Virus record (IMG/VR): IMGVR_UViG_3300031857_000140
Coordinates: 2,017-66,016 of that record
From: a virus
Lineage: Duplodnaviria; Caudoviricetes
DNA length: 64,000 nt
Reading direction: 5' to 3' (one strand)
Numbering within the stretch: position 1 is the stretch's first letter; each line of letters opens with the position of its first letter. The notes under the pieces are model-generated. The model was not told the origin of the DNA, made no database searches, and saw nothing but the letters and a program-made list of their open reading frames with translations. The position numbers and the translations under genes were made by a program. Below are positions 1 through 64,000 of the stretch, in pieces.

Positions 1-3000
1 ATTTTTAAATTCCGTTACAACATTTGCAGGTAGTTCCGGATACTATGGTCGAATTTCAACAGAGTATAATTACCCATACATTGAAACATTTATTGATTCA
101 ATAGCTGCCGCATCTTGGGATAGTAGATTGGTTTTTCGCACCAATTCAAATGCTGGTGGAGCCACAACCGGAATGGTAATTGACCCATTTGGAAAAGTCG
201 GCATTGGAACCACGAGTCCGGCTGCGAAACTTACAGTAGCTGGAACCACATACTTAAATCTGACATCTGATTATTTTGGGGCTTCAACTACTGTTCAAAT
301 AAGTAGTGGTAGTGGCTCTAATGCTGTAGGAATACTATCAAATACTTTTTACTTATATCCATATTCATCTAACACTACGACTAGTTTGGTTTATGGATAT
401 AACGGAAATGCAAGCTGGGGCCTTACAAACGCTGGAGGCAACAGCAGGTTTGATTTCTATAGCTACTCCGCCGGAAGTAGCATTATGTCAATAACTAGTT
501 CAGGCAACGTTGGTATTGGCACTACTAGTCCTTCGTATAAGTTAGACGTAAGTGGGCAAATTAGGGTTGATAATGGAGTAGGAAATGGTTCCGGCCAGGC
601 GCTTATAGTTGGTGGTTCTGGAGATGTAACATTATCTGATGGAGGTTCATTATTCTTTGGAGCATACGATTATGGTGGCTCAACATATATTAGAGGATAT
701 GACTCTGGTGACGTTATGTACTTCTACAGTAACGGTACCAACGCAGTTTACTTTAAAAGCGATAGAGCAATATTCAGCGTTAACGTCGGTATTGGCACGA
801 CGAGTCCGTCATCTAAACTGCACGTATCTTCTTCCGGAGAAACAACTTTAATTATAGACTCCACTTCAGCTGGAACAGCTAGAATTAATCTAACTGGAGC
901 CGGTGGTGGAGCTGGTGCTATAACTAGTACTGTAGGTGGATTATATGTTTACGCATCAGGCGCTAATCCTATTACGTTTAATACAAACGGTTCCGAACGT
1001 CTCCGTGTAGAGTCAAATGGCAACGTAGGCATTGGGACGACGAGTCCTAGTACTAAGCTTGATGTTATTGGAACTGGTATATTTGGAACTATGACCACAT
1101 CAAGGGGGTCATACTCAAATGGGCTTTCTTTGCAAAATAATGGTGGGCAAGCAACGAGTTTATTTTTGTGGCAGGACGGTGTAGCTTCTGCTCACATTGG
1201 TTCACCGGCAAATAGCACAAGTCTTCACATTGTAAACAGCTATAATACTGGCTTAATTACTGACCCAAATGCCATAGTGTTAAACAATACTGGAAACGTC
1301 GGCATTGGCACTGCGACTCCTGGAGCTAAAATCCACGTTGTAGGTACGGAGTCAAGATTTGGTGGCGTTGCAAGTGGATTCATATCTGTGTATAATGCAA
1401 CCGGTAGAAGTGGATACATCCAAGCCAATGGCGGCACAGACCTAAGAATAGCCTCTGATTCCGACCCAATGACTATGTATGTCAACGGTTCAGAGCGAAT
1501 GCGTATTTCATCTGTAGGAGCACTCAAACTAAATGCTTATGGTTCCGGTTCAAATACCGGAACCGCCACCCAGCGTCTTGCTGTTGACGCTAGCGGTAAC
1601 GTCATTGAGATACCCATTGGCTCAGGACCAGTAGACGGAAACGGTACTGCGAACTATGTTACCAAGTGGAGTGATACTGATACGATTACTAATTCTATTA
1701 TCTATGATAATGGAACGAATGTGGGTATTGGGACTGCTACTCCTTCATCTAAGCTTGATGTTGCCGGAAGCACAAACGTTTCCACAACAAATTTCTATAG
1801 ATATGATGGAGACACAGGAATATTTGGCTCTGGAACATCAATATCTGGTGGTACCGCAAATCAATTGGGTATTCGTGCAGCAAATGAGATATTGTTTGCT
1901 ACAAACGGAGCCACCGAAAAGATGCGCCTTACTACAGGCGGACAGCTTATCGTTGGCGGAACTACTGTTGGTTATGCTGGCACAAAGCTCCAAGTAGGTA
2001 ATACATCCGACGTTCAGAATGGATTAAACATCCTAACGTCCACCACTGGATATGGATACATTCTATTTGGTGATGGGGCTGGTGCTGACACCTATGTTGG
2101 TCAGATATGGTATTACCACGGTGATAACTATATGGGCTTCCAGACCAATGGAGGAGAACGAATGCGCATCAATAGCGCAGGAAACATAGGAATTGGTACT
2201 ACAAGTCCAGCATATCGTTTAGATGTTCAAGCGGCGGCAGGGGTTGCTGTAAGAGTTAGAAATACATTCAATACAGATGATGCTTATTTTCTAGCTCAAA
2301 GCACATTAGGAAGTGCATTGTTTGGCATTAACGCAACTGGACAATACTTATATACTGGTGATGCAATACCAACATTGTTTTACAATAGCGGTACCGAACG
2401 TATGCGAATCACCAGCGCCGGCAACGTCGGCATTGGTACTACGAGTCCAGCTTCTGCATTGCAAATAGGTAGCGTAGGCTCAACTGGATATAGCGTTGGA
2501 AATGGTTTAGCTTTTGGTGACGGAACAAGAGCTGGAGCATTAAATGTTGATTCTAATGGAACTACTTTATACTCTAGTACCAATCTTATATTCTCTCCCG
2601 GTACAACAGAAGCAGTTCGAATCACAAGCTCTGGCTACTTCGGTATTGGCACGACGAGCCCAGGGGCTAAATTGCACGTATCAGGTGGAGAAATAAGAGT
2701 AGACGCAGGTCAAGCAATAACTCTTGACATAGTAAATAGTATGTACTTAGTTGGTGCTTCAAACCAATTAAGACTTTACAACGGTGGAAATGCTGTAATA
2801 AACATTACCGCTGGAGGCAATGTAGGTATTTTGACAACCAGTCCAAATAATAAGCTTCAGATTGGCTCGACGGGCTCGAGTGGATATTCGGGTAATGACA
2901 TTGCTATAGGCAATGGAACGCAAGTAATGGCGTTTTACCAAAGCGCTACTGTATCTACTTGGTATACCAACACTAGCTTTTCTCTTATGCCATCTGGCGC

Positions 3001-3670
3001 TGGGTCGGTAGGAAATCTTGGTGTAGGTACTGATAGTCCAACACAACGTGTTCACGTATCTGGCAACATCCGGGTAACCGGAGCCTACTACGACTCCAAC
3101 AACTCAGCAGGCTCATCAGGGCAGGTGCTGAGCTCTACAGGCTCAGGCACCGACTGGGTGAGCCTCTCTGAAATCACAGGAGTAGACGGAACCGGTACGG
3201 CTAACTACGTTGCTAAGTGGAGCGATACGGATACCATTACGAACTCATCCATCACAGACAACGGAAGTACAGTAACGGCAACTGTTGACCGCCTGAATAT
3301 GAATAAGCAGGCGGGCATCTATGTGTTCTCAAAGACAGTAGGTACATCAGCCACCTCTGACTTCTTTAGTATATCAAACTCCCACGGAGCCCAAGCGTTC
3401 AGGGTTACCTTTGTGTGTAGCACAAGTGGTTATTCAGTGGCAAAAACATACGAGGTCGTTCACGGATATGGAGGCTCGCCAGTGTACAACAAGATTGTAG
3501 ATACTGGTGCGTATTCTGGAAATGACTTTGATGTTGTGTTTGCTGACTCAAATGGCAGCGCTGGCACGAAGGCTACTGTGACAAACAACAGCACAACAAA
3601 CTCTGGTAACATCGTAGCCACCGTATTCCTTGGTGGTGGCTCAGAAACTATAACTGTAACAGCTCTCTAA
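1..3670 (+). CDS. Long tail fibre / receptor-binding protein 1 (3' part; true start at 61954, about 1351 aa across the wrap)
   Basis: About 11 GNVGIGTTSP-type repeats with ERMRI linkers in this part; frame continuous with ATG at 61954; tail gene cluster. Confidence 0.85.
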   Translation, partial: FLNSVTTFAGSSGYYGRISTEYNYPYIETFIDSIAAASWDSRLVFRTNSNAGGATTGMVIDPFGKVGIGTTSPAAKLTVAGTTYLNLTSDYFGASTTVQISSGSGSNAVGILSNTFYLYPYSSNTTTSLVYGYNGNASWGLTNAGGNSRFDFYSYSAGSSIMSITSSGNVGIGTTSPSYKLDVSGQIRVDNGVGNGSGQALIVGGSGDVTLSDGGSLFFGAYDYGGSTYIRGYDSGDVMYFYSNGTNAVYFKSDRAIFSVNVGIGTTSPSSKLHVSSSGETTLIIDSTSAGTARINLTGAGGGAGAITSTVGGLYVYASGANPITFNTNGSERLRVESNGNVGIGTTSPSTKLDVIGTGIFGTMTTSRGSYSNGLSLQNNGGQATSLFLWQDGVASAHIGSPANSTSLHIVNSYNTGLITDPNAIVLNNTGNVGIGTATPGAKIHVVGTESRFGGVASGFISVYNATGRSGYIQANGGTDLRIASDSDPMTMYVNGSERMRISSVGALKLNAYGSGSNTGTATQRLAVDASGNVIEIPIGSGPVDGNGTANYVTKWSDTDTITNSIIYDNGTNVGIGTATPSSKLDVAGSTNVSTTNFYRYDGDTGIFGSGTSISGGTANQLGIRAANEILFATNGATEKMRLTTGGQLIVGGTTVGYAGTKLQVGNTSDVQNGLNILTSTTGYGYILFGDGAGADTYVGQIWYYHGDNYMGFQTNGGERMRINSAGNIGIGTTSPAYRLDVQAAAGVAVRVRNTFNTDDAYFLAQSTLGSALFGINATGQYLYTGDAIPTLFYNSGTERMRITSAGNVGIGTTSPASALQIGSVGSTGYSVGNGLAFGDGTRAGALNVDSNGTTLYSSTNLIFSPGTTEAVRITSSGYFGIGTTSPGAKLHVSGGEIRVDAGQAITLDIVNSMYLVGASNQLRLYNGGNAVINITAGGNVGILTTSPNNKLQIGSTGSSGYSGNDIAIGNGTQVMAFYQSATVSTWYTNTSFSLMPSGAGSVGNLGVGTDSPTQRVHVSGNIRVTGAYYDSNNSAGSSGQVLSSTGSGTDWVSLSEITGVDGTGTANYVAKWSDTDTITNSSITDNGSTVTATVDRLNMNKQAGIYVFSKTVGTSATSDFFSISNSHGAQAFRVTFVCSTSGYSVAKTYEVVHGYGGSPVYNKIVDTGAYSGNDFDVVFADSNGSAGTKATVTNNSTTNSGNIVATVFLGGGSETITVTAL

Positions 3671-3673
3671 GAT

Positions 3674-6661
3674 ATGGCAAACACTTTTAACCATAACGGT
3701 AAAGTAGTAATCACTGATGGTGGTAACGTAGGCATTGGTACGACTAGTCCAACAAGACTATTAGAAATCTCAGCAACAAATCCACAATTCAGCATCAAGT
3801 CAACAAGTGCAACAGGATTTAGTGAATTGTATTTTGGTGACAATACTGCCGACAATGGATGGATTGGGTATGCACATAATGGAGATTATATGTATTTCGG
3901 AACTAATAACTCCGAACGAATGCGCATCACTGCCGCAGGTAACGTCGGCATTGGTACGACTAGTCCAACCTATAAACTAGAGGTTGTTGGCGGAAGTGTT
4001 AACACTCAGATAGCAAGATTCATAACAGCTGATTACCCAACACACAGTGTTGGACTTGGTGTTGATGCCCAATCTACATATTGGGGAGCATCTATCTTCC
4101 AAGATGATGTCAAAAGATTTACTGTAGATAGTACTGGAGGTATTCTTGTTGGAGGAAACTATCAAGGCTCAGATGCTCCAGCTAATGGAGCTGCTATTGA
4201 GGGTAGCGTAGGTATTGGTACGACGAGTCCATCGTATAAATTGGATGTATTTGGAGGATTTAATGCTGTAACATCCGGGGTAAATATAACTTACGACAAC
4301 GGTATTCTATACCACGGTAACTACTACCAGATTACTAGTGGAAACAATTACCTATTATACGCAAGAGGAGGAGGAGCTTTACTTTTAGGTAGTGATGATG
4401 TTGAACGTATACGCATCACCAGCGCAGGCAACGTCGGCATTGGGACGACGAGTCCTGTGTCACACGCACCAAGCAGAAGAACATTGGTTGTAGCTGATAC
4501 AGTTAATGGAGCCAACGTAGAGATATGGGGTAATAATGCAGGTGGAAAGTCTATACTTCAAAGTGTAGGTGGAGATACCTATGTAGGTAATCTTGCTAAC
4601 GGTAGTGGAGCTGGAACTACATATATAACGTCTGGGAATGGAAGTACTTATACTACTTTCTTAGCAAACGGAAACGTCGGCATTGGCACGACGACGCCAG
4701 AAGGAAAGCTTCACGTATCAGGAGGTCAGGTTGTTTTAAAGGGTGGGGGAGCCACAGACCAGCAGATAGTTTACAACTTCGCTAGAGAGTATGTAAATGG
4801 AATCTATAACTCTAGTGGTCACTTCAGACTACAAGACAACTCACTAGGTGGAACTGTATATCAATGGGATGGAAGCTCATTCTGTTTTCCGAATGGCAAC
4901 GTCGGCATTGGCACGACGAGTCCAGGGTATAAACTAGAAGTAAACGGAGACATTGGCTTTAGCATTGGCGCTTCATTAAAATGGGGGGGAAATACATACA
5001 TATACGGAGAGAATAATGTCCAAATACAAGCTGTTGTCAATGGCAATACTGGATTATTCATAAACTCATCTGGCAACGTCGGTATTGGTACGACGGCCCC
5101 GGGAGCTCCTCTTCACGTATACAAGTCAGATACATATTCGGCTATTGTTTCAAGAGCAGATTGGAATAGCAGCGTACCAACGAAGCTTGCGCTTGGAAAG
5201 CAATATGGAGTTCTTGCATTCATATCTACCGACTTGGTAGAAACCACAACTGATACTTCTTATATAGCTCTTAACTACAAGAGTGGACTAACAACTTTTG
5301 CTGAGGGGCTTCGTGTTTACAACAACGGCAACGTCGGCATTGGTACGACAAGTCCTGGGGCAAAGCTTGAGGTTACTGATGAGATAAGAGTTTCATCAGG
5401 CGGTTCCTACGCATCGTTTACTGCTCGCAATACTGGCACTACTGGCGGCGGTGGCTTGCTTGGTTATCAGAATGGTGTAGCAAACGCATTCTTTGGCGTC
5501 GCTGGTTGGTATCTCGGGAATTCCGACACTGGTATTATCGTTGGAACAGATAGTTCAAGCAGACCGATTCGTTTCTACACGAATACCGAGCGTATGCGTA
5601 TTTCCGGTGATGGCAACGTCGGCATTGGGACGACGAGCCCATCTTACAAATTGCACCTAGTTGGGGGTAGTGAATATATAGATGGGGGTCTTGGTCCAAT
5701 TAACAGTTCGCCATATACATCAGCTAATCGTTTGATATTTAATAATGACTATAACGATGTAGCAAGAGGGCCAAATAAGATAACGCTATACGATGGCAGC
5801 TGGCTTGGAGGCTTTGGTATTCACAACAATACATTGGCATACTATTCGGGCGGAATTCACAACTGGTATCTAGCCTCGGATGCCACAAATGCTGTTTCGC
5901 TTATGACCCTTACGTCGGGTGGTAGTCTAGGCATTGGGACGACGAGTCCTTCCGAAAAGCTCCACGTAGACGGAAACGTAATCGTAACCTACAACAACTC
6001 GTTCCAAGGCATCAACAGCATCGGCAACAAGGCTATCCTGGCTCGGGTGTCTCCGACTACCGGAATCATCAACTACGCTGAGTACGCAACAGCTACCAAC
6101 CTCAACGGCTTTGTTCTGGGTTCCGACGACGCACGAGTCAAAGGAGACATCGCAACAGACTCTCTTGACTTCATCACCAACACATCCAGTCGGATGTTTA
6201 TCAACTCAAGTGGTAACGTTGGTATTGGAACTACAAGTCCAAGCTATAAGCTAGACGTTGTTGGAGACTCTCGCATCACCTCTGGTTCCTTAGGCGTGGG
6301 CGTAGCTCCTAACGCCACCGACGGACGGATTGACGCATCCAACGACATCGTAGCCTACTCTACCTCTGACCAGCGCCTCAAGGAGAACGTAACGCCAATC
6401 GAGAACGCACTCGAGAAGGTGAAGACGCTCACTGGTGTGGAGTTCGACTGGAAGGAAGATACGGCTCACGTCCACGGCTACCACGGACACGACGTAGGTA
6501 TCATTGCTCAGGACGTGCAGGCTGTTCTCCCAGAGGCTGTCCGCACCAACGAAAGCGGCTACCTATCTGTACGCTACGAGAAGATGATTGCGCTCTTGAT
6601 TGAGGCAAACAAAGAACTTGCTGCTCGTGTTGAATTTTTGGAACAAAAACTTAAACAGTAA
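3674..6661 (+). CDS. Tail fibre 2 with C-terminal peptidase S74-type intramolecular chaperone
   Basis: 11 GNVGIGTTSP repeats; C-terminal SDQRLKENV...GIIAQDVQAVLPEAV...VRYEKM plus coiled coil. Confidence 0.88.
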   Translation: MANTFNHNGKVVITDGGNVGIGTTSPTRLLEISATNPQFSIKSTSATGFSELYFGDNTADNGWIGYAHNGDYMYFGTNNSERMRITAAGNVGIGTTSPTYKLEVVGGSVNTQIARFITADYPTHSVGLGVDAQSTYWGASIFQDDVKRFTVDSTGGILVGGNYQGSDAPANGAAIEGSVGIGTTSPSYKLDVFGGFNAVTSGVNITYDNGILYHGNYYQITSGNNYLLYARGGGALLLGSDDVERIRITSAGNVGIGTTSPVSHAPSRRTLVVADTVNGANVEIWGNNAGGKSILQSVGGDTYVGNLANGSGAGTTYITSGNGSTYTTFLANGNVGIGTTTPEGKLHVSGGQVVLKGGGATDQQIVYNFAREYVNGIYNSSGHFRLQDNSLGGTVYQWDGSSFCFPNGNVGIGTTSPGYKLEVNGDIGFSIGASLKWGGNTYIYGENNVQIQAVVNGNTGLFINSSGNVGIGTTAPGAPLHVYKSDTYSAIVSRADWNSSVPTKLALGKQYGVLAFISTDLVETTTDTSYIALNYKSGLTTFAEGLRVYNNGNVGIGTTSPGAKLEVTDEIRVSSGGSYASFTARNTGTTGGGGLLGYQNGVANAFFGVAGWYLGNSDTGIIVGTDSSSRPIRFYTNTERMRISGDGNVGIGTTSPSYKLHLVGGSEYIDGGLGPINSSPYTSANRLIFNNDYNDVARGPNKITLYDGSWLGGFGIHNNTLAYYSGGIHNWYLASDATNAVSLMTLTSGGSLGIGTTSPSEKLHVDGNVIVTYNNSFQGINSIGNKAILARVSPTTGIINYAEYATATNLNGFVLGSDDARVKGDIATDSLDFITNTSSRMFINSSGNVGIGTTSPSYKLDVVGDSRITSGSLGVGVAPNATDGRIDASNDIVAYSTSDQRLKENVTPIENALEKVKTLTGVEFDWKEDTAHVHGYHGHDVGIIAQDVQAVLPEAVRTNESGYLSVRYEKMIALLIEANKELAARVEFLEQKLKQ

Positions 6662-13675: not shown

Positions 13676-16600
13676 ATGCCGTCTATTGATAAGCTCATAC
13701 CGCGCTATCTCAACACTGATGACGATGAGCGTCTCGTTAAGAGCGTAGAAATGACGGATGCGCAGAACTTGCGCATCTCTGTCGACGTTGAACGTGATGC
13801 GCTTGTAATCAAAAATGCTTATGGAAACGTAGCGAGGTCTAGCACGCTTGAGAACGGCTCCATGCCAGCGGGAACCAACAAGGCTCTCGGCTCTGTTGCT
13901 GACGACACCACCAATCAGATTTACTTCGCTGTGTACAACAGCGGTGGAAACCACTTGATTGTGCGCTACGATGCCAACGGAAAGAAGGCATACAAGGTAT
14001 ACCAAAGCTCAGTACTGCAGTTTTCATTGGACTCGTTTGTGCAGATGTCTATCGTGCGCAACTCCAACACGGACATCCTTCTCTACCTCAACGACGGCCT
14101 TAGCGCTCCGAAGAAGATAAATGCCACCAAGGCAGAGCAGAGCCTTACGGGCAATGGAGGATACCCTTCTACGTTCCTTAATGGAACTAGTGAGGAGAAG
14201 CTGTTGTACATCACGGTGGCTAAGCAGCCACCTTTGGCGCCGCCCACAATCACGTTCGTAAACAACCCATCGTACCCGCAGAACGAAATGTTCGAGAAGA
14301 ACTTTCAGTTTGCATACCAGTATGAGTACATCGACGGTGAGCAGAGCGCTCTAAGCCCATACTCTCGTTTGGCGGTATCGGCATCGCAGTTGAAAGACGG
14401 ATTCATCAATACCGGACAGAAGAACTTCTTCAACCAGATTAACGTAACGGTAGCCAACAACAAGGGCGACGTTAGCAAAATCAAGGTATATGCTCGTCGT
14501 GGAGACCGCGATGCGCCTTTCTTCTTGATTGCTACGCTGTTGAATAACCCTTCTGGTGGAACGCAGGTAGTGAACTTCCGCGATGACCAGAGCTTCATTC
14601 CTTTGGCAGCGGAGGTGCAGGACAAGCGTTACGACAACGTACCACAGGTTGCTGACTCTCAGGCTATATGCAGTAGCCGCCTCTTTTATGGCGGCTACAC
14701 CGAGGGCTACCCGAACCTATCTGTTGAGGGCACGAGCGTCACTCCGAACTACAACGAGAAGACCACGCCCATCGACATAGATGTTCAGTTCGTTTCAAAT
14801 CCAGCTTCTGCGTTTGATGACCCTACTGAGCAGAACAGATACTTCTCAATCAACTACGCAAACATTCCTGCTGTTGTAACGGAAGACTCTTCGGTATTCT
14901 TGTCCTTTTCTTGGGACGACGGATTTGTTGTCCTAAAGAATAGGCTTGGAGACAACGACAACTACAACTTCTGGATGCAGGGTGGGGCTCCGAGCGCAAA
15001 CGACATTTCTGTTAAGCCAGGTGGCGTTGGTTTGTTTTCAACTATGTCTGCGGCAGAAAAGGCTTCAGCCATCTCTGGTATTAGAATACCGGCGCCAAAC
15101 CAAGGAGAGCCCGGCCCAAATGCCGATGGACCACTCAACTGTCCGCCAACTATCCGTTTCATCAAGCAAAAAGGAACGAGCGAGACAGAAGACCGTGAAG
15201 TACCCATTGAGGCTATACGCAATGGAATCAAATTGCTTACCAGCGGAATTCAAGTGCGTAAGCGTATTGACATTCCAGCTGGGACTACTCGACTTCGCGT
15301 AATACAAATCATCGAAGGACAGATATTGGGTCGCTATCCAATCTTAGCTAATCCTCAGCCTGGAAACGGTGGATTCAGTACGTTTACCACGTCTGATGCT
15401 ACTGCTGGAACTGTTGAATCTGCAGCATTCAAGGGAAAGGGATATGCCTATATCTGGCCTGTATCTGAGGGTTCTACTTCTACGTTAAAGACCTATAAGG
15501 TCCTAATTGATACCCTTACTATTTCCATTGACAAGTTTGTCTTTGGTCAAAAGCAAACGGATGTTATTGACCCAGATTCTCCAACAGCTCAGTTTGACTT
15601 CATCGAGGGTCCATCAAACTCAAAGGACCAGAACAACCGGATTATCATCAACCAATACGTAAGTAATGGTCGTGGTCAAGAGGTAAAGCTCGGTCCTGGA
15701 TATGCTCAGGGTGAAACTCGCGACGGTCAAGTGCTACGCACCAATGCATCTGTTACGTCGGGTGGTTGCTTCCTTATCCCCCGTGATAAGATGGACGGCC
15801 AGCGCTGCTTCAAGTCGGGCTCAGCTCACCAGCTTGGCATCGTGTACTTCGATGACCGTGGTCGTGCAGGTGGCGTTCAGCGAGTAGGAACAGCAGAAAT
15901 CCTGCACACCAATAACCGCGCCACACAGAACAACCTTGACGGATTCGCAAACATCGTTATGCGAATCAAGCACAAGCCACCCGTATGGGCAAAGAGATAC
16001 TCTCCGGTATACGCTGGAGTTGGCTCTGTGGTTAACAAGGTTCAGTACAGCGTAGGTGGTGCATACCTCGCATTCAACGACCAATCCAATCAGGGTTCAT
16101 TTGGTGCAAACCAGAGCATCTATCTGGCGTTAAATACCCTGCAAGGCAAGGAGAACTCGTACACCAACCAGTTTGGTGCCATGATTGAATACGGCTTTGC
16201 CATTGGTGATAAGGTGCGCATCGTCCGTTACGGAAACAACCAAAAGGTTCAGTACGTATTCAAAGTCGTTAAGACCGTCAACCTGATTGACGACCTGGCC
16301 ATCAACCCGCTGTTAGATAGAAGCTCTAAGGCTTCTATCCAAAACACCACGGGTACGTTCTTGGTCATTGAGGAAAACGAAGGAGCTACTGGCTTCAATG
16401 CGAAGAGTATCCTTAACAACAACAGCAATTGGAACGACGATTGCGTTATTGAGATATTCCGAGAGAATAAGGCCTTTGACAGCAAGCTATACTACGAGAT
16501 TGGAACTAGCCTTCCCATCACGAGCGGTGTTCACGCTTCTGAGCGTGTAACAGGCTCAAGCTCGGTAAAGGTTACTGCTCAGAGCGCAAATACAGTAACG

Positions 16601-18745
16601 GCCTACTCGGTCAACCAATTCTACAAGGGTGACATCATTGAGGATGACTTTGGGAATCAAATCATCGTAGGCAACGTAACGCCAAGTACCGCAGAGACCG
16701 GATTTAACTATCTGTTCTACGGCACAACAGCTAATACATTCGTTACGCCGTACACGGCTACGTTTGACGTAGCCAACCCAGATTCTATTGTGATGCTCAG
16801 CGCGGGAGACTCGTACTTCCGTTTGCGCACCTTGCTCACAGGAGCAGGTGCTGCAAACCAGAACATCATCAGCAATACGCGCATTGCCTTTGCTCAGAAC
16901 AACATCGTTGACTTCATCGAGGACCCACGGGTTAGTGACTTCTACGAGTCTGACTTCCAATCACTTGGCCGTTCATTCCCGTATCTTCCAGATGCGAAGA
17001 CTTACAAGCGCATTGGCTCACTCACGTGGTCTGACCCATTCAACAACGAGAACACCACCCTTGGCCTTTCTTCGTTCAACCTAACGAAGATTAACTACAA
17101 GGACTTGGCCTACGACTACGGTTCCATCCGTAGTCTTGTTCCGTACAATGAGATGATGTACGTATTGCACGAGCGACGTGCTGGCATCATTCCTGTTGGT
17201 CGCAACATCATCACCGCAGATACCGGAGAATCGCTTGTCGCCTCTAACTTGATTCTCGGCCCAGTGAAATACTACACTGGTGAATTTGGAATCAACAACA
17301 ATCCTGAATCTGTTGCCTCTTATCGTGGCTACGTGTTCTTCATTGACGCTATCGCTGCAAAGGTGTGCCGTATCGGATTTGAGAGCGGAATTGAGGTAAT
17401 CAGCGAACAGCTTGTTGATGCGTTCTTTGAGGACAATCTGTACTCTACGGTAACCACGGCCACAAACCGCCGTTACATCGGCGGTGTGGACAAGGAGAAC
17501 ACCGAGTACATCATCAGTGCTGCAGCGCTTTACACTTCCGAGATTACCGTTGAAGATGACCTAACCGGAAATACTGTCAATGGATTCGGTTCTACTAACA
17601 GCGCCTCATCGTTAATCAATGCTGTCCCAGTTTACGACGACAGCCTGACGTTCAACTTTGAGTCAGACCCTCGTGACTTTGACATCAACCAAGACACCTT
17701 TGGAACATCTGGTGCTGGTCTGATTATTACAGACCAGCTAACCAATCAGCCCATCATTGCACTTGCGGAGAGCTACTCTCCAGCATATCAAGATGGAGCA
17801 CTCACGAGTGCTATTCCAGTTGCGGTTACCAGCTCTTCGTTTGATGCGTTTATGCTGTCGACCTTTAGCCAGCAGACTACGCAGCTAACGCTGACCAATT
17901 CTGCTGAGTCAACGGGAACGATTACCAATACTGTTGAGACACTACCTGCATTCACTATAGCTTACGACATTCGTGGAAACTACTGGAGCACGAGGTATTC
18001 GTACATACCTGAGCAAATTGTTTCGCTCTCTGATGCGGTCTACACCTTCAAGAACGGAATTATTTACGAACATAATCCTACTGTTGCTCGTAATACATTT
18101 TATGGCGTTGCTGCTCCAAGCATCGTTGAAGTGATTTCAAACTTCAATCCTTCAATGGTAAAGGTCTACGAGGCCATTAGCCTCGAAGGAAACAGCAATG
18201 CTTGGTCTTGTACGCTGAATAACTCAACGCAGAACTCAGCAATCGCAAGCAGCATCTGGCAAGACAAGGAAGGCTTCTACTACGCGCCAATCCATCAGGA
18301 TTCAACGATGGGGACCATCTCTACCACTTCAACAGCTAACATCACCTCGGTAGATGGAACCTCGCAGTTCTTCTCTTTGGGTGTAGTTAACTCCGCCTCT
18401 GGTAGCGTCATCAACTTCAAGAACGCAATCAACAACATTCCGTTCCCAGTTGGTAGCACCACTGCGCTGTACAAGTTGAACTCTGTTTCTAGCCGCCTGG
18501 AGCCTCTCGGCTACCGCGCGGACAGCAAGAGTGGTGAGAAGCAAATCACCTGCAACGCAACGGCTTTAGGTCTGGTACAGAACGATGTAGTAATCCTTGT
18601 GGCTACTCCATCCATTGAAGGCGACCAGATGCGTGACTACTATATGCAGGCTACGCTTACGAATTCGCTAACTACTCCACACGAGTTGTACGCGATTAAC
18701 TTGATATACACAAAGTCTAACCTACATAACCAGCAAGGTCAGTAA
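13676..18745 (+). CDS. Tail stabilisation / nozzle protein (P22 gp10-like, crAss-like)
   Basis: LNTDDDERL...DAQNLR N-terminus, FKSG..HQLGIVYFDDRGR, GEFGINNNPES, WSTRYSYIPE. Confidence 0.75.
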   Translation: MPSIDKLIPRYLNTDDDERLVKSVEMTDAQNLRISVDVERDALVIKNAYGNVARSSTLENGSMPAGTNKALGSVADDTTNQIYFAVYNSGGNHLIVRYDANGKKAYKVYQSSVLQFSLDSFVQMSIVRNSNTDILLYLNDGLSAPKKINATKAEQSLTGNGGYPSTFLNGTSEEKLLYITVAKQPPLAPPTITFVNNPSYPQNEMFEKNFQFAYQYEYIDGEQSALSPYSRLAVSASQLKDGFINTGQKNFFNQINVTVANNKGDVSKIKVYARRGDRDAPFFLIATLLNNPSGGTQVVNFRDDQSFIPLAAEVQDKRYDNVPQVADSQAICSSRLFYGGYTEGYPNLSVEGTSVTPNYNEKTTPIDIDVQFVSNPASAFDDPTEQNRYFSINYANIPAVVTEDSSVFLSFSWDDGFVVLKNRLGDNDNYNFWMQGGAPSANDISVKPGGVGLFSTMSAAEKASAISGIRIPAPNQGEPGPNADGPLNCPPTIRFIKQKGTSETEDREVPIEAIRNGIKLLTSGIQVRKRIDIPAGTTRLRVIQIIEGQILGRYPILANPQPGNGGFSTFTTSDATAGTVESAAFKGKGYAYIWPVSEGSTSTLKTYKVLIDTLTISIDKFVFGQKQTDVIDPDSPTAQFDFIEGPSNSKDQNNRIIINQYVSNGRGQEVKLGPGYAQGETRDGQVLRTNASVTSGGCFLIPRDKMDGQRCFKSGSAHQLGIVYFDDRGRAGGVQRVGTAEILHTNNRATQNNLDGFANIVMRIKHKPPVWAKRYSPVYAGVGSVVNKVQYSVGGAYLAFNDQSNQGSFGANQSIYLALNTLQGKENSYTNQFGAMIEYGFAIGDKVRIVRYGNNQKVQYVFKVVKTVNLIDDLAINPLLDRSSKASIQNTTGTFLVIEENEGATGFNAKSILNNNSNWNDDCVIEIFRENKAFDSKLYYEIGTSLPITSGVHASERVTGSSSVKVTAQSANTVTAYSVNQFYKGDIIEDDFGNQIIVGNVTPSTAETGFNYLFYGTTANTFVTPYTATFDVANPDSIVMLSAGDSYFRLRTLLTGAGAANQNIISNTRIAFAQNNIVDFIEDPRVSDFYESDFQSLGRSFPYLPDAKTYKRIGSLTWSDPFNNENTTLGLSSFNLTKINYKDLAYDYGSIRSLVPYNEMMYVLHERRAGIIPVGRNIITADTGESLVASNLILGPVKYYTGEFGINNNPESVASYRGYVFFIDAIAAKVCRIGFESGIEVISEQLVDAFFEDNLYSTVTTATNRRYIGGVDKENTEYIISAAALYTSEITVEDDLTGNTVNGFGSTNSASSLINAVPVYDDSLTFNFESDPRDFDINQDTFGTSGAGLIITDQLTNQPIIALAESYSPAYQDGALTSAIPVAVTSSSFDAFMLSTFSQQTTQLTLTNSAESTGTITNTVETLPAFTIAYDIRGNYWSTRYSYIPEQIVSLSDAVYTFKNGIIYEHNPTVARNTFYGVAAPSIVEVISNFNPSMVKVYEAISLEGNSNAWSCTLNNSTQNSAIASSIWQDKEGFYYAPIHQDSTMGTISTTSTANITSVDGTSQFFSLGVVNSASGSVINFKNAINNIPFPVGSTTALYKLNSVSSRLEPLGYRADSKSGEKQITCNATALGLVQNDVVILVATPSIEGDQMRDYYMQATLTNSLTTPHELYAINLIYTKSNLHNQQGQ

Positions 18746-33913: not shown

Positions 33914-34699
33914 TTAAATTTCCCCTTCAAGGTAGAACGAGCTGGAAGGCTTGTCCCTTTCAAAGTGCTCTCGGATGGTGTTAATCGCCCGATTGAACTT
34001 CTCCTCACCGAAGCGAAGGGTTTGCTCCGATGCTTTGTATACGGCAGGGACATAAGGGAAAGACTTCTCTTGGGTGACCCAGTAGAAGTCCTCATATCCG
34101 AAGACCTTGCAGTAAAGATACGCCTGAATATCGTACCCTAAGTATTTTACGTCAGAACGAAATGCTGACATTGAACGTGTTGTCTTGGAATCAGAGATGA
34201 ATCCATTGCCCTTGCAGTCGAGGAATCCCCTAAAAGGGATTCCGTCTACCTCTTCGTTGAACTCAACCTGGTAGTCTCCACTCAGGTAGATTTCAATGAT
34301 GCCGCATTCGTTAAGTCGGTCCACCATGTCAATGATTTGCTGGTGGTCATCGAGGCTAAGGATGGTGCGCTCACCAATGGATGCATCCATTTCGTTCTTC
34401 CACTCTTTGTAGACGCTTGTAGCACGAGGGCTTTTGGCTCCATCAGCCAACAGCTTCTCAATGATGTGCGTATCATCCATTACAAAGAAGCGTTCATCAA
34501 ACGCTTCGGGGGTAAACAGCAGGCAGTCGTATGCGCTTCCGAACTGAAGAGCCTCGCTGTCCTTCTTGAGCTTGCCCATCATGTACATCTCAAAGAGCGC
34601 GATGTCTTGCAGTGCGTACTTGATAGAGCTGTAGGATAGGTATGGCTTCCCAGTGCGCTCAATCATCTGGGTAATCCACTTGTCTTTCTTCTTAGCCAT
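33914..34699 (-). CDS. RecE/ExoVIII-like PD-(D/E)XK exonuclease
   Basis: LSYSSIK, FGSAYD, FRGFLD...DSKTT, YDIQAYLY, FYWVTQEK. Confidence 0.8.
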   Translation of the reverse strand: MAKKKDKWITQMIERTGKPYLSYSSIKYALQDIALFEMYMMGKLKKDSEALQFGSAYDCLLFTPEAFDERFFVMDDTHIIEKLLADGAKSPRATSVYKEWKNEMDASIGERTILSLDDHQQIIDMVDRLNECGIIEIYLSGDYQVEFNEEVDGIPFRGFLDCKGNGFISDSKTTRSMSAFRSDVKYLGYDIQAYLYCKVFGYEDFYWVTQEKSFPYVPAVYKASEQTLRFGEEKFNRAINTIREHFERDKPSSSFYLEGEI

Positions 34700-37776: not shown

Positions 37777-38310
37777 TTAGGCCGTTACGTGTAAGCGAAG
37801 TGAGTGTGTCTGTTCCTCGCTGAGGATAGTACCATACTTAGAAATCACTGCATCAAAGCGTTTCTTGCGTTCAGGCGCATTGGCTCCCGCCTTGATATGC
37901 TCCGCAGCCTTCTCTAAGTCGGGGGCCGCCGATGCCTTGGGCGCAGATGGTAGCTCCTGCTTGGCGATAGCAAGCGATACTTCTTCTGCTGTTGCAATGG
38001 ATGACTCAACACCGATGCCGAGGAACCCAAGCGCACGACCTACGGCCGACGTCTCGCAGTTCTCCACGTACGATGTCTTGTTAATCATTGATGCCGACCG
38101 GTCTTCTTGAGCGAAGCCCGTAGCAGCGACAGCTCCCTTGCTGTCGCGTATGGTCGCCTTCATGACGCACATATCTGAGTCTATCGCTACCATCTCGGTC
38201 TCGATTGAATAGCCCTTGTACTCGGGCAGTTTACGCAGGGCAATAATGCGTTCGTTCACCTGAACGTACTCCTTGCCCTTGATGTTGGTTGTCTTTAGTT
38301 GGTAAGCCAT
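37777..38310 (-). CDS. Putative single-strand annealing recombinase (Rad52/Sak-like)
   Basis: IKGKEYVQVNERI...ENCETSAVGRAL..LGIG. Confidence 0.6.
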   Translation of the reverse strand: MAYQLKTTNIKGKEYVQVNERIIALRKLPEYKGYSIETEMVAIDSDMCVMKATIRDSKGAVAATGFAQEDRSASMINKTSYVENCETSAVGRALGFLGIGVESSIATAEEVSLAIAKQELPSAPKASAAPDLEKAAEHIKAGANAPERKKRFDAVISKYGTILSEEQTHSLRLHVTA

Positions 38311-49996: not shown

Positions 49997-50365
49997 CTAG
50001 AACTGCTCTGACCAGTATACCATGATGTTGTTTAAGGTATCGGCCTTGTGCAATGTCTGCACGGTGATGTCCTTACTCCAGTATACTGTGTGCTTTCCTT
50101 CCTCATTTGAAAATGACCATGTGGTGTCGCTCTCGCTGATGATTTCACTTAGTTCAGAAAGCTGAGAAGGCTTGAACTCCCATAAAGTACAAACTACAGA
50201 GTCTCCGATTTCAGCATCATACCATACACCTTGGTACGGAGTGCATTCCATGTTCTCGATTCGAGAAGGCGTATCCTCAAAGTAAGGACGGCTAAAGTGA
50301 AGGTACAGGCCAAAGGCAAGAACAGTGGTGCCAGCGGCAGCGAGAAGGGGGAGGTTGGTTTTCAT
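49997..50365 (-). CDS. Membrane-anchored protein, isolated moron-like gene
   Basis: N-terminal TM; own promoter (TACATTTG on minus strand) and terminator; opposite to neighbours. Confidence 0.65.
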   Translation of the reverse strand: MKTNLPLLAAAGTTVLAFGLYLHFSRPYFEDTPSRIENMECTPYQGVWYDAEIGDSVVCTLWEFKPSQLSELSEIISESDTTWSFSNEEGKHTVYWSKDITVQTLHKADTLNNIMVYWSEQF

Positions 50366-50501
50366 AGTTGGTATCAATTTTTAGTTAATTGTAGTACAAA
50401 TGTAGATAAAGTTTTGAATTGTGCAAGTGCAAGCAAAAATTTTTTTCACATCACCAAGCAAAAGTCCAATATGGTAACTTTGCTATTCAACGTCTACAGA
50501 C

Positions 50502-50687
50502 ATGAAAAAGTATCGAGTTAAGTCCTACAACGAAGGGGGCGAGATGGAGTCAGAGCAGGAAATCGAGGTCATGAACCCCGACCTGATGATGGCCGTCAAG
50601 CAAGTACAGGCAGCCGTTAAGGCAACAGGTATGGCCCCGGCCCACTACAAAATCAAAGCTTGCTACTACTCCGAAAGTGAAGACTAG
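50502..50687 (+). CDS. Small protein (YNEGG)
   Basis: TAACTTTG at 50475. Confidence 0.6.
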   Translation: MKKYRVKSYNEGGEMESEQEIEVMNPDLMMAVKQVQAAVKATGMAPAHYKIKACYYSESED

Positions 50688-50895
50688 TAAGTACTACGCT
50701 AGCAACGCAAAGGCTCGCGCTAAGAAGGCTGAATACGATACCGAGTATCACTCAACCAAAGAGCGCAAGAAATACCGTGCGTTCCTAAATAAGAAGAACC
50801 GTGATGCCGGAACCTACGGTAACGGAGACGGTGAAGACTATGACCACGACGAGCGCCGGATGATTCCGGCCTCTCGCAACAGAGCAAAGAAGTAA
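50677..50895 (+). CDS. Small basic protein, degenerate HNH-like
   Basis: GDGEDYDH...SRNR. Confidence 0.5.
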   Translation: MKTSKYYASNAKARAKKAEYDTEYHSTKERKKYRAFLNKKNRDAGTYGNGDGEDYDHDERRMIPASRNRAKK

Positions 50896-51011
50896 TGGCT
50901 AAGAGCACTAAGAAGCGAGCAGGAGCTGTTGTCGGCCAGAAGAAGGTCAGCAAAGAGCGTGCAGCACAAGGAAAGACAAACTACGAACTACTAAACAAAC
51001 TAAGCAAATGA
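50895..51011 (+). CDS. 38-aa basic peptide
   Basis: Hand-translated; overlapping start/stop on both sides. Confidence 0.6.
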   Translation: MAKSTKKRAGAVVGQKKVSKERAAQGKTNYELLNKLSK

Positions 51012-51112
51012 CCGGAATTGAATTTGAGGACTGGCTCGAGGAGCTAGAAGAAGCAAAGCAGCCAACCTGCAACATCGAAAACCCAGAGGACTGTGAAGCC
51101 TGCGGTAGCTAA
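51008..51112 (+). CDS. 34-aa acidic peptide ending CNIENPEDCEACGS
   Basis: Hand-translated; ATGA overlap with the upstream gene. Confidence 0.7.
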   Translation: MTGIEFEDWLEELEEAKQPTCNIENPEDCEACGS

Positions 51113-51116
51113 AAAG

Positions 51117-51230
51117 ATGACCGTAACCCAGAAGTACAACTCCATGAAGCGTCAAGCGGAGGAGGCCGGGATGCGCGTATATGAAAAGGACGGAAAGCTT
51201 AGGGTCGTCCGTGTAAAGAAGAAGAAATGA
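51117..51230 (+). CDS. 37-aa basic peptide
   Basis: Hand-translated; stop overlaps next start. Confidence 0.55.
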   Translation: MTVTQKYNSMKRQAEEAGMRVYEKDGKLRVVRVKKKK

Positions 51231-51454
51231 AACTCAAGAAGCTAGATAAGAACATCATGGTGAAAGCCCCAGAAGGCCACCACTGGATGAACGACGGAAG
51301 CGGTCGCTTCTACCTGATGAAGCATTCTGGTAAGTTCGTCAAGCATCCTGGCGCAAGCCTCGAGGCTCCGTTCCGCCTAGTGACCCACGATAAGCCATCA
51401 ACAGCTAAAGAGCAGATGGCTATTGGTGCTCTGATGAAGGCAAAGAAAGCCTAA
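51227..51454 (+). CDS. Small hypothetical protein
   Basis: KAPEGHHWM...YLMKH pattern. Confidence 0.6.
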   Translation: MKLKKLDKNIMVKAPEGHHWMNDGSGRFYLMKHSGKFVKHPGASLEAPFRLVTHDKPSTAKEQMAIGALMKAKKA

Positions 51455-51884: not shown

Positions 51885-51913
51885 ATCAGTATCTTTGTTT
51901 CAAAAGTACTAAT

Positions 51914-52882: not shown

Positions 52883-52884
52883 AC

Positions 52885-61216: not shown

Positions 61217-61957
61217 ATGAAGCTGTGCGGTAAATGCAAAACTGAGAAACCATTTGAAGAGTTCCATAAGTGCAAGTCGCACAAAGATGGCCTATCATCT
61301 CATTGCAAACCCTGCAAGAAGGTTGCTGACAGAAAATACAACGAAGAAAACAGGGATGTTGTTGCGGCTAAGAAAAAAGAATACAACGAAAGAAACAAAG
61401 AGCGCCTAGCTGAAAAAAAGAAAATATACTCGCAAAATAATAAAGAGTTATTAAAGGAATATAAGAGACAATACTATCTAAAGAACAAAGAGTCTATATC
61501 CATTAAGCAACGTGAGCATTATGAAAAAACTAGAGACTCTTACATTTCAAGAACTAGGAAGCACTATATAGCTAATAAAGAATCTATTGCTGTCAAGAAG
61601 AGAGAGTACGAAAAGAAACGAAAGGAGTCAAACCCAGTATTCAAATTGATTTGCAATATGAGAACAAGTATATATAGGTCTTGTAGAGCGATGAGTTTGA
61701 ACAAGAAGTTTAAGACATTTGATGCTCTCGGCATCACACAAGATGAGTTTAAGATATATATTGAGTCACACTTTGTTGAAGGTATGACTTGGAATAACTA
61801 TGGGCACGGCGAAGGCAAGTGGTCCATTGACCACACAAAGCCACTTTGCACAGCAAAGACAGAAGAAGACGTTTTCACATTGAATCACTACACTAATCTC
61901 CGGCCGATGTGGTGGTTCGACAATTTAGCTAAAGGCGGAAAATATCAAGAACAATGA
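61217..61957 (+). CDS. Free-standing HNH-type homing endonuclease
   Basis: CGKC..KP..EF.K...DGL...CK.C; Lys-rich repeats; WSIDH.KPL...HYTNLRP.W..DN..KG; AT-rich. Confidence 0.85.
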   Translation: MKLCGKCKTEKPFEEFHKCKSHKDGLSSHCKPCKKVADRKYNEENRDVVAAKKKEYNERNKERLAEKKKIYSQNNKELLKEYKRQYYLKNKESISIKQREHYEKTRDSYISRTRKHYIANKESIAVKKREYEKKRKESNPVFKLICNMRTSIYRSCRAMSLNKKFKTFDALGITQDEFKIYIESHFVEGMTWNNYGHGEGKWSIDHTKPLCTAKTEEDVFTLNHYTNLRPMWWFDNLAKGGKYQEQ

Positions 61958-64000
61958 GCGTGAGATTTTTATCAGGAGTAAACGTAGACAGCAATACGCT
62001 GGTTGTTGATGACGTAAATAACCGAGTAGGTATTGGTACGGCGAGTCCGGGCACCATTTTAGAAGTATCTTCAGCAACTCCAATCTTTAGAATTTCATCA
62101 TCTCTAAATTCATCGTTTCACGGAATTGAATTTCGAAATGGTGGTGCGCTTGATGCTGAGATAAAGCAGCTTCCTGAAACTGGAGAATTTAGAATCTCAA
62201 ACGGAAGGAACTCAAGCTGGGGTGGCTTTATTACGCTTTACACCGATACGGCAGAACGAATGCGCATCACTAGCGCAGGCAACGTGGGTATCGGAACTAC
62301 TTCACCAAGTGAAAAACTTGATGTGAATGGAAACGGAAGATTTTTAAATTCCGTTACAACATTTGCAGGTAGTTCCGGATACTATGGTCGAATTTCAACA
62401 GAGTATAATTACCCATACATTGAAACATTTATTGATTCAATAGCTGCCGCATCTTGGGATAGTAGATTGGTTTTTCGCACCAATTCAAATGCTGGTGGAG
62501 CCACAACCGGAATGGTAATTGACCCATTTGGAAAAGTCGGCATTGGAACCACGAGTCCGGCTGCGAAACTTACAGTAGCTGGAACCACATACTTAAATCT
62601 GACATCTGATTATTTTGGGGCTTCAACTACTGTTCAAATAAGTAGTGGTAGTGGCTCTAATGCTGTAGGAATACTATCAAATACTTTTTACTTATATCCA
62701 TATTCATCTAACACTACGACTAGTTTGGTTTATGGATATAACGGAAATGCAAGCTGGGGCCTTACAAACGCTGGAGGCAACAGCAGGTTTGATTTCTATA
62801 GCTACTCCGCCGGAAGTAGCATTATGTCAATAACTAGTTCAGGCAACGTTGGTATTGGCACTACTAGTCCTTCGTATAAGTTAGACGTAAGTGGGCAAAT
62901 TAGGGTTGATAATGGAGTAGGAAATGGTTCCGGCCAGGCGCTTATAGTTGGTGGTTCTGGAGATGTAACATTATCTGATGGAGGTTCATTATTCTTTGGA
63001 GCATACGATTATGGTGGCTCAACATATATTAGAGGATATGACTCTGGTGACGTTATGTACTTCTACAGTAACGGTACCAACGCAGTTTACTTTAAAAGCG
63101 ATAGAGCAATATTCAGCGTTAACGTCGGTATTGGCACGACGAGTCCGTCATCTAAACTGCACGTATCTTCTTCCGGAGAAACAACTTTAATTATAGACTC
63201 CACTTCAGCTGGAACAGCTAGAATTAATCTAACTGGAGCCGGTGGTGGAGCTGGTGCTATAACTAGTACTGTAGGTGGATTATATGTTTACGCATCAGGC
63301 GCTAATCCTATTACGTTTAATACAAACGGTTCCGAACGTCTCCGTGTAGAGTCAAATGGCAACGTAGGCATTGGGACGACGAGTCCTAGTACTAAGCTTG
63401 ATGTTATTGGAACTGGTATATTTGGAACTATGACCACATCAAGGGGGTCATACTCAAATGGGCTTTCTTTGCAAAATAATGGTGGGCAAGCAACGAGTTT
63501 ATTTTTGTGGCAGGACGGTGTAGCTTCTGCTCACATTGGTTCACCGGCAAATAGCACAAGTCTTCACATTGTAAACAGCTATAATACTGGCTTAATTACT
63601 GACCCAAATGCCATAGTGTTAAACAATACTGGAAACGTCGGCATTGGCACTGCGACTCCTGGAGCTAAAATCCACGTTGTAGGTACGGAGTCAAGATTTG
63701 GTGGCGTTGCAAGTGGATTCATATCTGTGTATAATGCAACCGGTAGAAGTGGATACATCCAAGCCAATGGCGGCACAGACCTAAGAATAGCCTCTGATTC
63801 CGACCCAATGACTATGTATGTCAACGGTTCAGAGCGAATGCGTATTTCATCTGTAGGAGCACTCAAACTAAATGCTTATGGTTCCGGTTCAAATACCGGA
63901 ACCGCCACCCAGCGTCTTGCTGTTGACGCTAGCGGTAACGTCATTGAGATACCCATTGGCTCAGGACCAGTAGACGGAAACGGTACTGCGAACTATGTTA
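61954..64000 (+). CDS. Long tail fibre 1, N-terminal part (MSVRFLSGVNVDSNTLVVDDVNNRVGIGT...), runs off the window end
   Basis: ATG overlaps the TGA of the upstream HNH gene; open frame in phase with ORF 128..3670; not in the ORF track because no stop lies in the window. Confidence 0.9.
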   Translation, partial: MSVRFLSGVNVDSNTLVVDDVNNRVGIGTASPGTILEVSSATPIFRISSSLNSSFHGIEFRNGGALDAEIKQLPETGEFRISNGRNSSWGGFITLYTDTAERMRITSAGNVGIGTTSPSEKLDVNGNGRFLNSVTTFAGSSGYYGRISTEYNYPYIETFIDSIAAASWDSRLVFRTNSNAGGATTGMVIDPFGKVGIGTTSPAAKLTVAGTTYLNLTSDYFGASTTVQISSGSGSNAVGILSNTFYLYPYSSNTTTSLVYGYNGNASWGLTNAGGNSRFDFYSYSAGSSIMSITSSGNVGIGTTSPSYKLDVSGQIRVDNGVGNGSGQALIVGGSGDVTLSDGGSLFFGAYDYGGSTYIRGYDSGDVMYFYSNGTNAVYFKSDRAIFSVNVGIGTTSPSSKLHVSSSGETTLIIDSTSAGTARINLTGAGGGAGAITSTVGGLYVYASGANPITFNTNGSERLRVESNGNVGIGTTSPSTKLDVIGTGIFGTMTTSRGSYSNGLSLQNNGGQATSLFLWQDGVASAHIGSPANSTSLHIVNSYNTGLITDPNAIVLNNTGNVGIGTATPGAKIHVVGTESRFGGVASGFISVYNATGRSGYIQANGGTDLRIASDSDPMTMYVNGSERMRISSVGALKLNAYGSGSNTGTATQRLAVDASGNVIEIPIGSGPVDGNGTANYV
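62340..64000. repeat. Repeat of window positions 1-1661 (wrap-around of a 62,339-bp circular or terminally redundant genome)
   Basis: Sequence from 62340 reads as position 1 onward; ORFs 639..851 and 62978..63190 are identical and offset by 62,339. Confidence 0.98.

Follow-up and report, generated by a model that had tools for sequence, protein, structure and literature searches.

How are long phage tail fibres rebuilt while their reading frame and fold are kept intact? This question is raised by two adjoining tail-fibre genes in a 64,000-nucleotide (nt) stretch of DNA (the window), which covers positions 2,017 to 66,016 of the IMG/VR record IMGVR_UViG_3300031857_000140 from a virus of the class Caudoviricetes. 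Both genes are arrays of dissimilar modules chained by a repeated motif, GNVGIGTTSP, here called the joint. An earlier reading of the letters of this DNA (the sequence-only reading) proposed that the repeats are in-frame crossover points at which modules are gained, lost and reordered, and comparison with related sequences supports this proposal in three ways: the joints are locked in their codons, the fibre arrays of relatives are mosaic and not collinear, and the breakpoints between shared and unrelated segments cluster at the joints. Two outcomes that would have refuted the proposal, namely synonymous sites conserved no further than codon bias explains and collinear relatives with breakpoints unrelated to the repeats, were both checked for and neither was obtained. 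The fibre modules are thus likely to be rebuilt through homology-driven recombination at the codon-locked joints.

The joint motif and its codon lock

About 24 repeats had been claimed across the two fibre genes, mostly 180-310 bp apart and often preceded by a linker. We counted 24 in-frame copies on the same strand, 13 in fibre gene 1 and 11 in fibre gene 2; the peptide pattern itself retrieves 23 of them, and the remaining one (TNVGIGTATP, 1715) is included once the first residue may be T. Every position named earlier was right, and the list required a single correction: the window wraps, gene 1 starts at 61954, and two further copies are found at 62020 and 62278. The spacing of the joints is 177-312 nt, with the exception of two gaps of 423 and 465 nt that each contain one degenerate joint (1493 and 1916, respectively). 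An ERMRI-type linker stands ahead of approximately 9 of the 24 joints. At the nucleotide level, the 29-mer of the joint has 14 matches with no more than three mismatches, all on the plus strand and three of them in the wrapped duplicate, while 100 shuffled sequences gave none.

S74 fibres form trimers, and the fibres considered here probably do the same, by analogy with their solved relatives. The S74 chaperone domain with its SDxxxK signature is present in gene 2 only; gene 1 ends in a different domain of 208 amino acids (aa), which it has in common with one relative (L039). Among solved structures, gene 2 has matches to the Bdellovibrio fibres Bd2133 (8OND, E-value 7.6e-11), Bd3182 and Bd1334, and its similarity to 8OND consists of three separate stretches, each aligning an ERMRI..GNxGxGT..P..KL.V unit. 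The Bdellovibrio MAT fibres are described as intertwined trimeric beta-helix domains in which a consensus motif forms the capping loops at the domain edges; in Bd3182 two capping loops bound a surface cleft, and chimeric tips are reported as well (Caulton 2024, PMC10769870). By homology, each module of our arrays would be one beta-helix segment of approximately 60-145 aa opened by a capping loop. The repeats of both fibres are without a Pfam family, and an AlphaFold2 monomer model of gene 2 aa 640-995 (three modules and the S74 domain) was of low confidence, with a mean predicted local distance difference test score (pLDDT) of 38.5.

The modules had been described as AT-rich and mostly unrelated to each other, in contrast to GC-richer constant parts, and the measured values agree with this description. 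The GC content at third codon positions (GC3) is 0.36-0.39 in the fibre genes versus 0.56 in the other 49 open reading frames (ORFs) of the genome. It ranges from 0.18 to 0.42 in 21 of the 24 modules, against 0.59 in both stretches earlier called constant (3060-3300 and 5960-6660); the last two modules of gene 2 have values of 0.60-0.64. Only 16 of the 276 module pairs reach a blastp E-value below 0.01, and they do so mostly through some 20 residues beside the joint.

To the claim that the repeats keep the same synonymous codons we applied a third-position check against codon bias, with codon usage taken from the 49 other ORFs and, separately, from the fibre modules. The synonymous homozygosity summed over 14 conserved columns was 6.49, a value matched by none of 20,000 simulations; the simulated sums were 4.64 (standard deviation 0.22, maximum 5.72) under genome usage and 4.89 (standard deviation 0.23, maximum 6.05) under fibre usage. 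Synonymous conservation in the joints is therefore greater than codon bias predicts. The signal is carried by Ile ATT (22/23), Ser AGT (17/20), Asn AAC (16/19), the two Thr ACG columns (14/24 and 12/20) and the second Gly (column 3). The Val codon GTC is also over-used (11/20, against 8% in the modules), with a column homozygosity that is not significant (p 0.06 and 0.39). Elsewhere in the genome AGT makes up 7% of the Ser codons, and ATT and ACG are not the preferred codons either, so translational accuracy or codon optimality is ruled out as the cause of the lock.

The codon pattern is even stronger in the relatives, for which we analyzed 191 joints after leaving out the window and three near-duplicate loci (L006, L012 and L081). 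Inside versus outside the joints, the codon shares are 71% versus 14% for GGC, 86% versus 36% for AAC, 51% versus 6% for GTC, 88% versus 52% for ATT, 45% versus 9% and 34% versus 9% for the two ACG columns, and 82% versus 26% for AGT; the linker codons CGC (42% versus 5%) and ACC (52% versus 13%) follow the same trend. The equally conserved K, L and V codons located 3-6 codons downstream of these 191 joints serve as an internal control. They show background usage, so the lock must have a cause beyond the conservation of amino acids. In other lineages the peptide is retained with a different spelling. Most of the 12 joints in the Synechococcus phage S-CRES1 (L090, ORF from 1288) are spelt GGC AAC GTT GGT ATC GGT ACG AGT, an indication that an unrelated cyanophage has codon-locked joints of this type too; in S-TIM5 the spelling is mixed. 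The lock is thus specific to a gene pool, as homogenisation predicts, and this argues against a universal codon constraint. Within this genome, in-register exact tracts of at least 17 nt connect 25 of the 276 joint pairs, versus 2.0 pairs in recoded nulls that preserve the peptide (maximum 9 in 300 nulls); for tracts of at least 20 nt the numbers are 9 and 0.4 pairs.

Mosaic arrays and breakpoints in relatives

Using the adaptor-like gene (59660-61147) as query, we collected 78 IMG/VR loci. The region from portal to adaptor is common to them at approximately 66-80% nucleotide identity; within the fibre genes they have in common almost only a joint of 50-60 nt (82-96%), plus occasional single modules, and the median length of the high-scoring segment pairs (HSPs) between loci is 53 nt. 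The number of modules per fibre locus varies from 6-7 (L015 and L018) up to 35 (L039). We cut 30 fibre ORFs into 238 modules, leaving out two loci with three motifs each in ORFs of 1,800 aa (L042 and L056). At thresholds of at least 40% identity over at least 70% of the length, these modules form 34 clusters and 151 singletons. The shared modules of this set occupy different positions in different arrays: the order of clusters 6 and 19 in L010 is reversed in L020, and for the window modules after 4697 and 5612 a reversal is seen in L079 and L080, where the two also lie in different genes.

Contigs with recent events (L094, L095, L096, L097 and L099) were supplied by a metagenome scan with fibre gene 2. 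One of them, L094, corresponds to window positions 2792-4924 (2,133 nt) at 99.6% identity, with 7 of its 8 mismatches within the last 156 nt; four gene 2 modules are 100% identical and the fifth is 97.3% identical. The identity stops at the end of the joint 4895-4924, beyond which nine unrelated modules stand for five modules of the window, and similarity returns at the joint 6212 (from 6211) at 91-94%. In L095 and L099, one extra module (180 and 270 nt, respectively) is inserted exactly between the last two joints of the window, with flanks 94-95% identical. L099 also contains the modules after 5327 and 5921, at 98.7% and 95.2% identity respectively, surrounded by unrelated modules, and L096 and L097 contain the module after 5612 at 92.3%. 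Module order among the relatives is thus not collinear, and includes gain or loss (L095 and L099), replacement (L094) and reordering (L010/L020 and L079/L080).

For the mapping of breakpoints, we used all HSPs of at least 120 nt against the window, namely 33 HSPs from 20 of 113 loci, which define 25 distinct intervals with 44 informative ends. The ends are concentrated at the repeats: 30 of the 44 are located within 45 nt of a joint midpoint (random mean 13.7, maximum 26 in 5,000 trials), and 23 within 30 nt (random mean 9.2, maximum 20 in 5,000 trials). Two of the outlying ends (1489 and 1916) fall on the degenerate joints at 1493 and 1916. Among the relatives themselves, 61% of 182 ends are within 45 nt, compared with 26% in the null (standard deviation 3%, maximum 37% in 2,000 trials), where some rows come from similar loci and are not independent.

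The exact 29-mer is present in 89 IMG/VR stretches. Of five carrier contigs sampled (46.7-204 kb), four have no match to the window portal, one of these four being rated complete and the others possibly being fragments. These four have only the joint in common with the fibre region of the window, and the 204-kb contig contains 12 such matches. The fifth contig is a relative with a portal 65% identical to that of the window.

A search with the Rad52-like gene at 37777-38310 retrieved four complete relatives (L119, L121, L122 and L132), among which the adaptor protein was unmatched in three and gave weak matches in one, so that no useful fibre comparison was obtained from them. Three of these genomes (L119, L121 and L122, approximately 61 kb) encode the Rad52-like protein at 84-86% identity. 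The adaptor-like protein is unmatched in all three, and relatives thus seem to pair replication and structural halves in varying combinations.

Proposed mechanism and rival explanations

Under the recombination model, the fibres would be long S74/MAT beta-helix chains in which each segment opens with the capping loop (ERMRITSA)GNVGIGTTSP..KL.V, and the 30-45 nt or so encoding this motif would be kept near-identical, in one frame and on one strand. Short-homology recombination between any two joints, whether these belong to a single genome, to sister genomes or to co-infecting phages, would then preserve both the reading frame and the structural register. Unequal exchange would gain or drop modules, exchange with another phage would swap them, and repeated exchange at the joints would thereby homogenise their spelling within the gene pool. 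Such changes may alter host recognition, and the segments may be 'binding' modules, as the sequence-only reading named them, or shaft segments. The DNA spelling itself could be selected for recombination or arise as its by-product.

The same reading had noted that no invertase or reverse transcriptase is encoded, and had named an exonuclease at 33914 and a single-strand annealing protein at 37777 as the likely agents. Neither reverse transcriptase nor invertase nor integrase families were detected in the 47 ORFs scanned at an E-value of at most 0.001 (5 at 0.1), a set in which only ORFs of at least 110 aa were chosen within 9000-56600. The exonuclease is confirmed as a member of the PD-(D/E)XK family by its DUF3799 and phrog_412 matches. 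The annealing protein is supported by its fold only. Its AlphaFold2 model (pLDDT 78) matches Mgm101, RAD52 and the 80alpha protein Sak (Foldseek E-values from 3e-4 to 5e-3, template modelling scores 0.33-0.44), and its Atlas lead is PF27148; by sequence it is assigned to no family. Together, these two proteins would be the phage's own candidates for carrying out the exchange.

Several observations weigh against recombination at the joints or limit its resolution. The joints of this genome have only short stretches of exact homology in common, with a median of 8 nt and a maximum of 26 nt, at or below the length needed by RecA-type recombination, and exchange events would therefore be rare. Several conserved columns show no significant codon excess (Gly columns 0 and 5, Lys, Leu, Ile -4, and Pro against fibre usage). 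Fourteen of the 44 breakpoint ends are more than 45 nt from any joint, and besides the two at degenerate joints, some of these outliers fall on a second kind of junction (GTANYV.KWSDTDTITNS, the KW junction) and some within modules. Divergence persists in L094 over roughly the first 60 nt past the right-hand joint. The resolution of breakpoints is limited to the joint itself, since a shared module always drags the conserved joints into the BLAST alignment, and selection for intact domains would equally place the surviving breakpoints there. The protein at 37777-38310 has no Pfam or PDB sequence match, and its PHROG match is of unknown function. Finally, the window and all of its relatives are metagenome assemblies.

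The last of these points is also what favours reading the mosaics as chimeric contigs, produced by assemblers that jump between co-occurring strains at a shared repeat, as do the many IMG/VR relatives that end at or just before the fibre genes and the terminal overlap of the window record. We give this reading little credence. The exact run at the left junction of L094 is only about 12-17 nt long, with two synonymous differences inside the joint, and this is shorter than the usual assembly k-mers; arrangements recur in separate contigs (L096 and L097; L079-L082; L006 and L008), and L094 independently confirms 2.1 kb of the window arrangement. A purely structural account, in which illegitimate recombination is random, only products joined at domain boundaries fold, and the spelling is conserved for some other reason (e.g. 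a translational pause for co-translational trimer folding), fares somewhat better and is still unlikely. It fits the position of the motif at a beta-helix domain boundary in the solved relatives, the shortness of the exact homology tracts and the breakpoints away from joints. However, the preferred codons are one specific string and not merely rare or optimal codons, this string varies between lineages while the peptide stays, and the exact tracts are about twelve-fold above the recoded nulls; random joins would mostly be out of register, yet the shared segments span from joint to joint.

A site-specific system appears very improbable. It would use the partial dyad CGTCGGC-ATTG-GC(A)CGACG as a hairpin, in DNA or RNA, that is the target of a nuclease or recombinase such as the HNH/endonuclease VII-like product of an ORF abutting fibre gene 1; this enzyme would start the exchange. 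That the consensus folds as a hairpin had been suggested earlier, and the suggestion gains no real support here. One of the two informative pairs, the third positions of Val and of the first Thr, pairs at a rate of 0.60 versus 0.46 after shuffling (reached in 0 of 2,000 shuffles). The other third-position pair is unassociated (0.36 versus 0.38), non-paired control columns are equally associated (8-23: 0.51 versus 0.41), and three of the five outer pairs are set by the peptide. As the unpaired controls are associated too, the pattern fits linkage between two spellings (GTC..ACG ACG and GTA..ACT ACT) and not a helix. Moreover, the HNH gene is missing from several relatives with equally mosaic fibres, and no recombinase family was detected among the 47 ORFs scanned. 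Tandem growth of the array by duplication and divergence, with no exchange between genomes, would account for the weak paralogy of the gene 1 modules after 2420 and 2816, and as a sole explanation it is barely conceivable: it is already contradicted by near-identical genomes that differ by whole blocks, by single modules at 92-99% nucleotide identity within otherwise unrelated arrays, and by a module GC3 that differs from that of the genome.

Genome setting and comparison with known systems

The window represents a wrapped phage genome of 62,339 bp, with positions 1..1661 identical to 62340..64000; the underlying record of 66,016 nt thus has a terminal overlap of 3,677 nt on a 62,339-nt unit. 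This overlap extends from window-equivalent position 60324 through the wrap to 1661 and ends within fibre gene 1. Many IMG/VR relatives likewise stop at the fibre genes or shortly before them, which is what a locus that breaks assemblies would produce. By megablast, neither the fibre region nor positions 50000-59000 had a nucleotide match among GenBank phages, and only distant protein matches were found in these phages, the portal being approximately 30% identical to Cellulophaga and Flavobacterium podophage portals. A 1689-aa protein (13676-18745, plus strand) contains the C-terminal domain of the crAss muzzle protein (PF25729, E-value 4.2e-9); together with the portal match this hints at a Bacteroidota-type podophage.

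The two fibre genes share one reading frame and are separated by TAA GAT alone (3668-3676, before the ATG), with no evident ribosome-binding site ahead of the gene 2 ATG; a relative (L007) has a single ORF of 1857 aa in their place. The KW junction occurs twice in gene 1, and a related string (..AVTKWDSS..LVNS.ITDDG) is found in the upstream adaptor-like gene (within 59660-61147), both regions being present in L039. Fibre gene 1 resembles a head-to-tail fusion of two fibre bodies. The HNH/endonuclease VII-like ORF (61163-61957, plus strand; phrog_1035, E-value 2.1e-23) is low in GC and overlaps the start codon of fibre gene 1. The gap between adaptor and fibre is too small for it in L007, L010, L014 and L025, and contains an insert of 650-830 nt in L002, L015, L018 and L020. 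It resembles homing endonucleases of the free-standing type and could trigger gene conversion beside the fibre locus.

Table 1. Coordinates of fibre genes, joints, other junctions and candidate recombination genes in the window
Feature	Position	Strand	Basis or remark
Fibre gene 1, 5' part	61954..62339	+	matches phrog_9942 and phrog_18345 tail fibre; 13 joints and 1351 aa in the whole gene
Fibre gene 1, remainder	1..3670	+	frame of base 2; stop TAA at 3668-3670
Fibre gene 2	3674..6661	+	995 aa, 11 joints; matches PHROG tail-fibre family
Peptidase_S74 intramolecular chaperone domain	6365..6544	+	gene 2 aa 898-957, with SDQRLK; PF13884, E-value 1.6e-19
Joint 1	62020..62049	+	NRVGIGTASP
Joint 2	62278..62307	+	ERMRI linker from 62254
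Joint 3	191..220	+	
Joint 4	503..532	+	
Joint 5	779..808	+	
Joint 6	1019..1048	+	linker from 995
Joint 7	1292..1321	+	
Degenerate joint	1493..1540	+	ERMRISSVGALKL, without GIGT; segment shared with L099 begins at 1489
Joint 8	1715..1744	+	TNVGIGTATP
Degenerate joint	1916..2000	+	EKMRLTTGGQLIVGGTT..TKLQV; EKMRLTT.. at 1916; segment shared with L099 begins at 1916
Joint 9	2180..2209	+	linker from 2156
Joint 10	2420..2449	+	linker from 2396
Joint 11	2633..2662	+	
Joint 12	2816..2845	+	
Joint 13	3011..3040	+	
Joint 14	3722..3751	+	
Joint 15	3938..3967	+	linker from 3914
Joint 16	4202..4231	+	
Joint 17	4427..4456	+	linker from 4403
Joint 18	4670..4699	+	L094 identity falls from 100% to 97.3% past it
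Joint 19	4895..4924	+	left breakpoint of the block replaced in L094
Joint 20	5072..5101	+	
Joint 21	5327..5356	+	opens module common to L099 at 98.7%
Joint 22	5612..5641	+	linker from 5588; opens module common to L096 and L097 at 92.3%
Joint 23	5921..5950	+	
Joint 24	6212..6241	+	right end of the block replaced in L094; L095 and L099 have their extra module here
Second kind of junction, copy 1	1630..1715	+	VDGNGTANYVTKWSDTDTITNS; VDG.GTANYV.KWSDTDTITNS; mid-gene 1
Second kind of junction, copy 2	3181..3266	+	77% nucleotide identity to copy 1; precedes the C-terminal tip domain of gene 1
PD-(D/E)XK exonuclease, RecE/exonuclease VIII-like; candidate agent	33914..34699	-	DUF3799, E-value 1.6e-19; phrog_412 exonuclease VIII, E-value 1.3e-41
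Rad52-fold protein, probable single-strand annealing protein; candidate agent	37777..38310	-	177 aa; fold match

If recombination at the joints is the correct reading, it provides a testable rule for the rebuilding of long phage fibres, namely one in-frame DNA joint placed at a structural loop so that the fold is kept intact. It would account for the wide variation, from 6 to 35 modules among the relatives compared, between fibre loci of uncultured phages that are otherwise alike, and the joints would be natural splice points for the construction of chimeric fibres. The joint is also a sequence signature for finding such fibre loci in metagenomes. A much broader extension, which we regard as possible at best, is that the spelling of approximately 30 nt is a 'universal joint', maintained as a DNA-level standard through second-order selection for evolvability. 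Modules would then travel between unrelated phage families, from podophage-like genomes of 40-60 kb to the 204-kb contig, and the whole aquatic pool of beta-helix modules would be recombinable in frame. The two co-existing spellings might in that case define compatibility groups.

Dedicated ways to vary a receptor-binding protein include invertible tail-fibre segments and shufflons (Gin/Cin/Min, R64 Rci) and diversity-generating retroelements. The former need a site-specific recombinase with inverted sites, and the latter a reverse transcriptase with template and variable repeats. In contrast, all joints described here are direct repeats on the plus strand, and none of these enzyme families was detected in the 47 ORFs scanned.

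Closer in sequence are the S74/MAT fibres (Bd2133, 8OND; Bd3182, 8OJN/8ONB/8ONC; Bd1334, 8OML; phage T5 pb1 and the K1F endosialidase), which are similar in the capping-loop motif and in the S74 domain of gene 2. For the Bdellovibrio fibres, an exchange of tip domains is described (PMC10769870), whereas here the whole shaft is modular; in a word search of that article, 'shuffl' has no occurrence and 'recombination' has two, both in the methods. Ongoing shuffling of protein fragments in phage proteins that interact with the host is reported by Smug et al. 2023 (PMC10684548), a study of mosaicism at the level of protein fragments that, in its available passages, names no DNA-level joint. Our literature search, which left subscription journals largely outside, retrieved no description of this motif, of its array scale and codon lock, or of a DNA-level joint in such fibres.

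The nearest precedent is the motif-mediated recombination of the T-even phages, whose distal tail-fibre and adhesin genes alternate conserved motifs (the gp37 motifs and the glycine-rich motifs of gp38) with hypervariable segments (as described in Trojet 2011, PMC3157838, citing Tetart 1996 and 1998). The same alternation is seen here, and in both systems the natural relatives are chimeras whose exchange points coincide with the motifs. The differences are in the protein family, in the motif and in the scale: a glycine core in gp38 with about five joints there, a probable beta-helix capping loop with 24 joints in two genes here. T-even modules are swapped in place, whereas the modules of our arrays are also gained, lost and reordered. 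In addition, the codon lock is quantified here, the same 29-mer was found in contigs where no homologue of the window portal was detected, and the present system is known from sequence comparison rather than from crosses. Altogether, the principle is known from the T-even phages, and it is the motif, the predicted fold, the scale of the arrays, the measured codon lock and the reach of the spelling that set this case apart.

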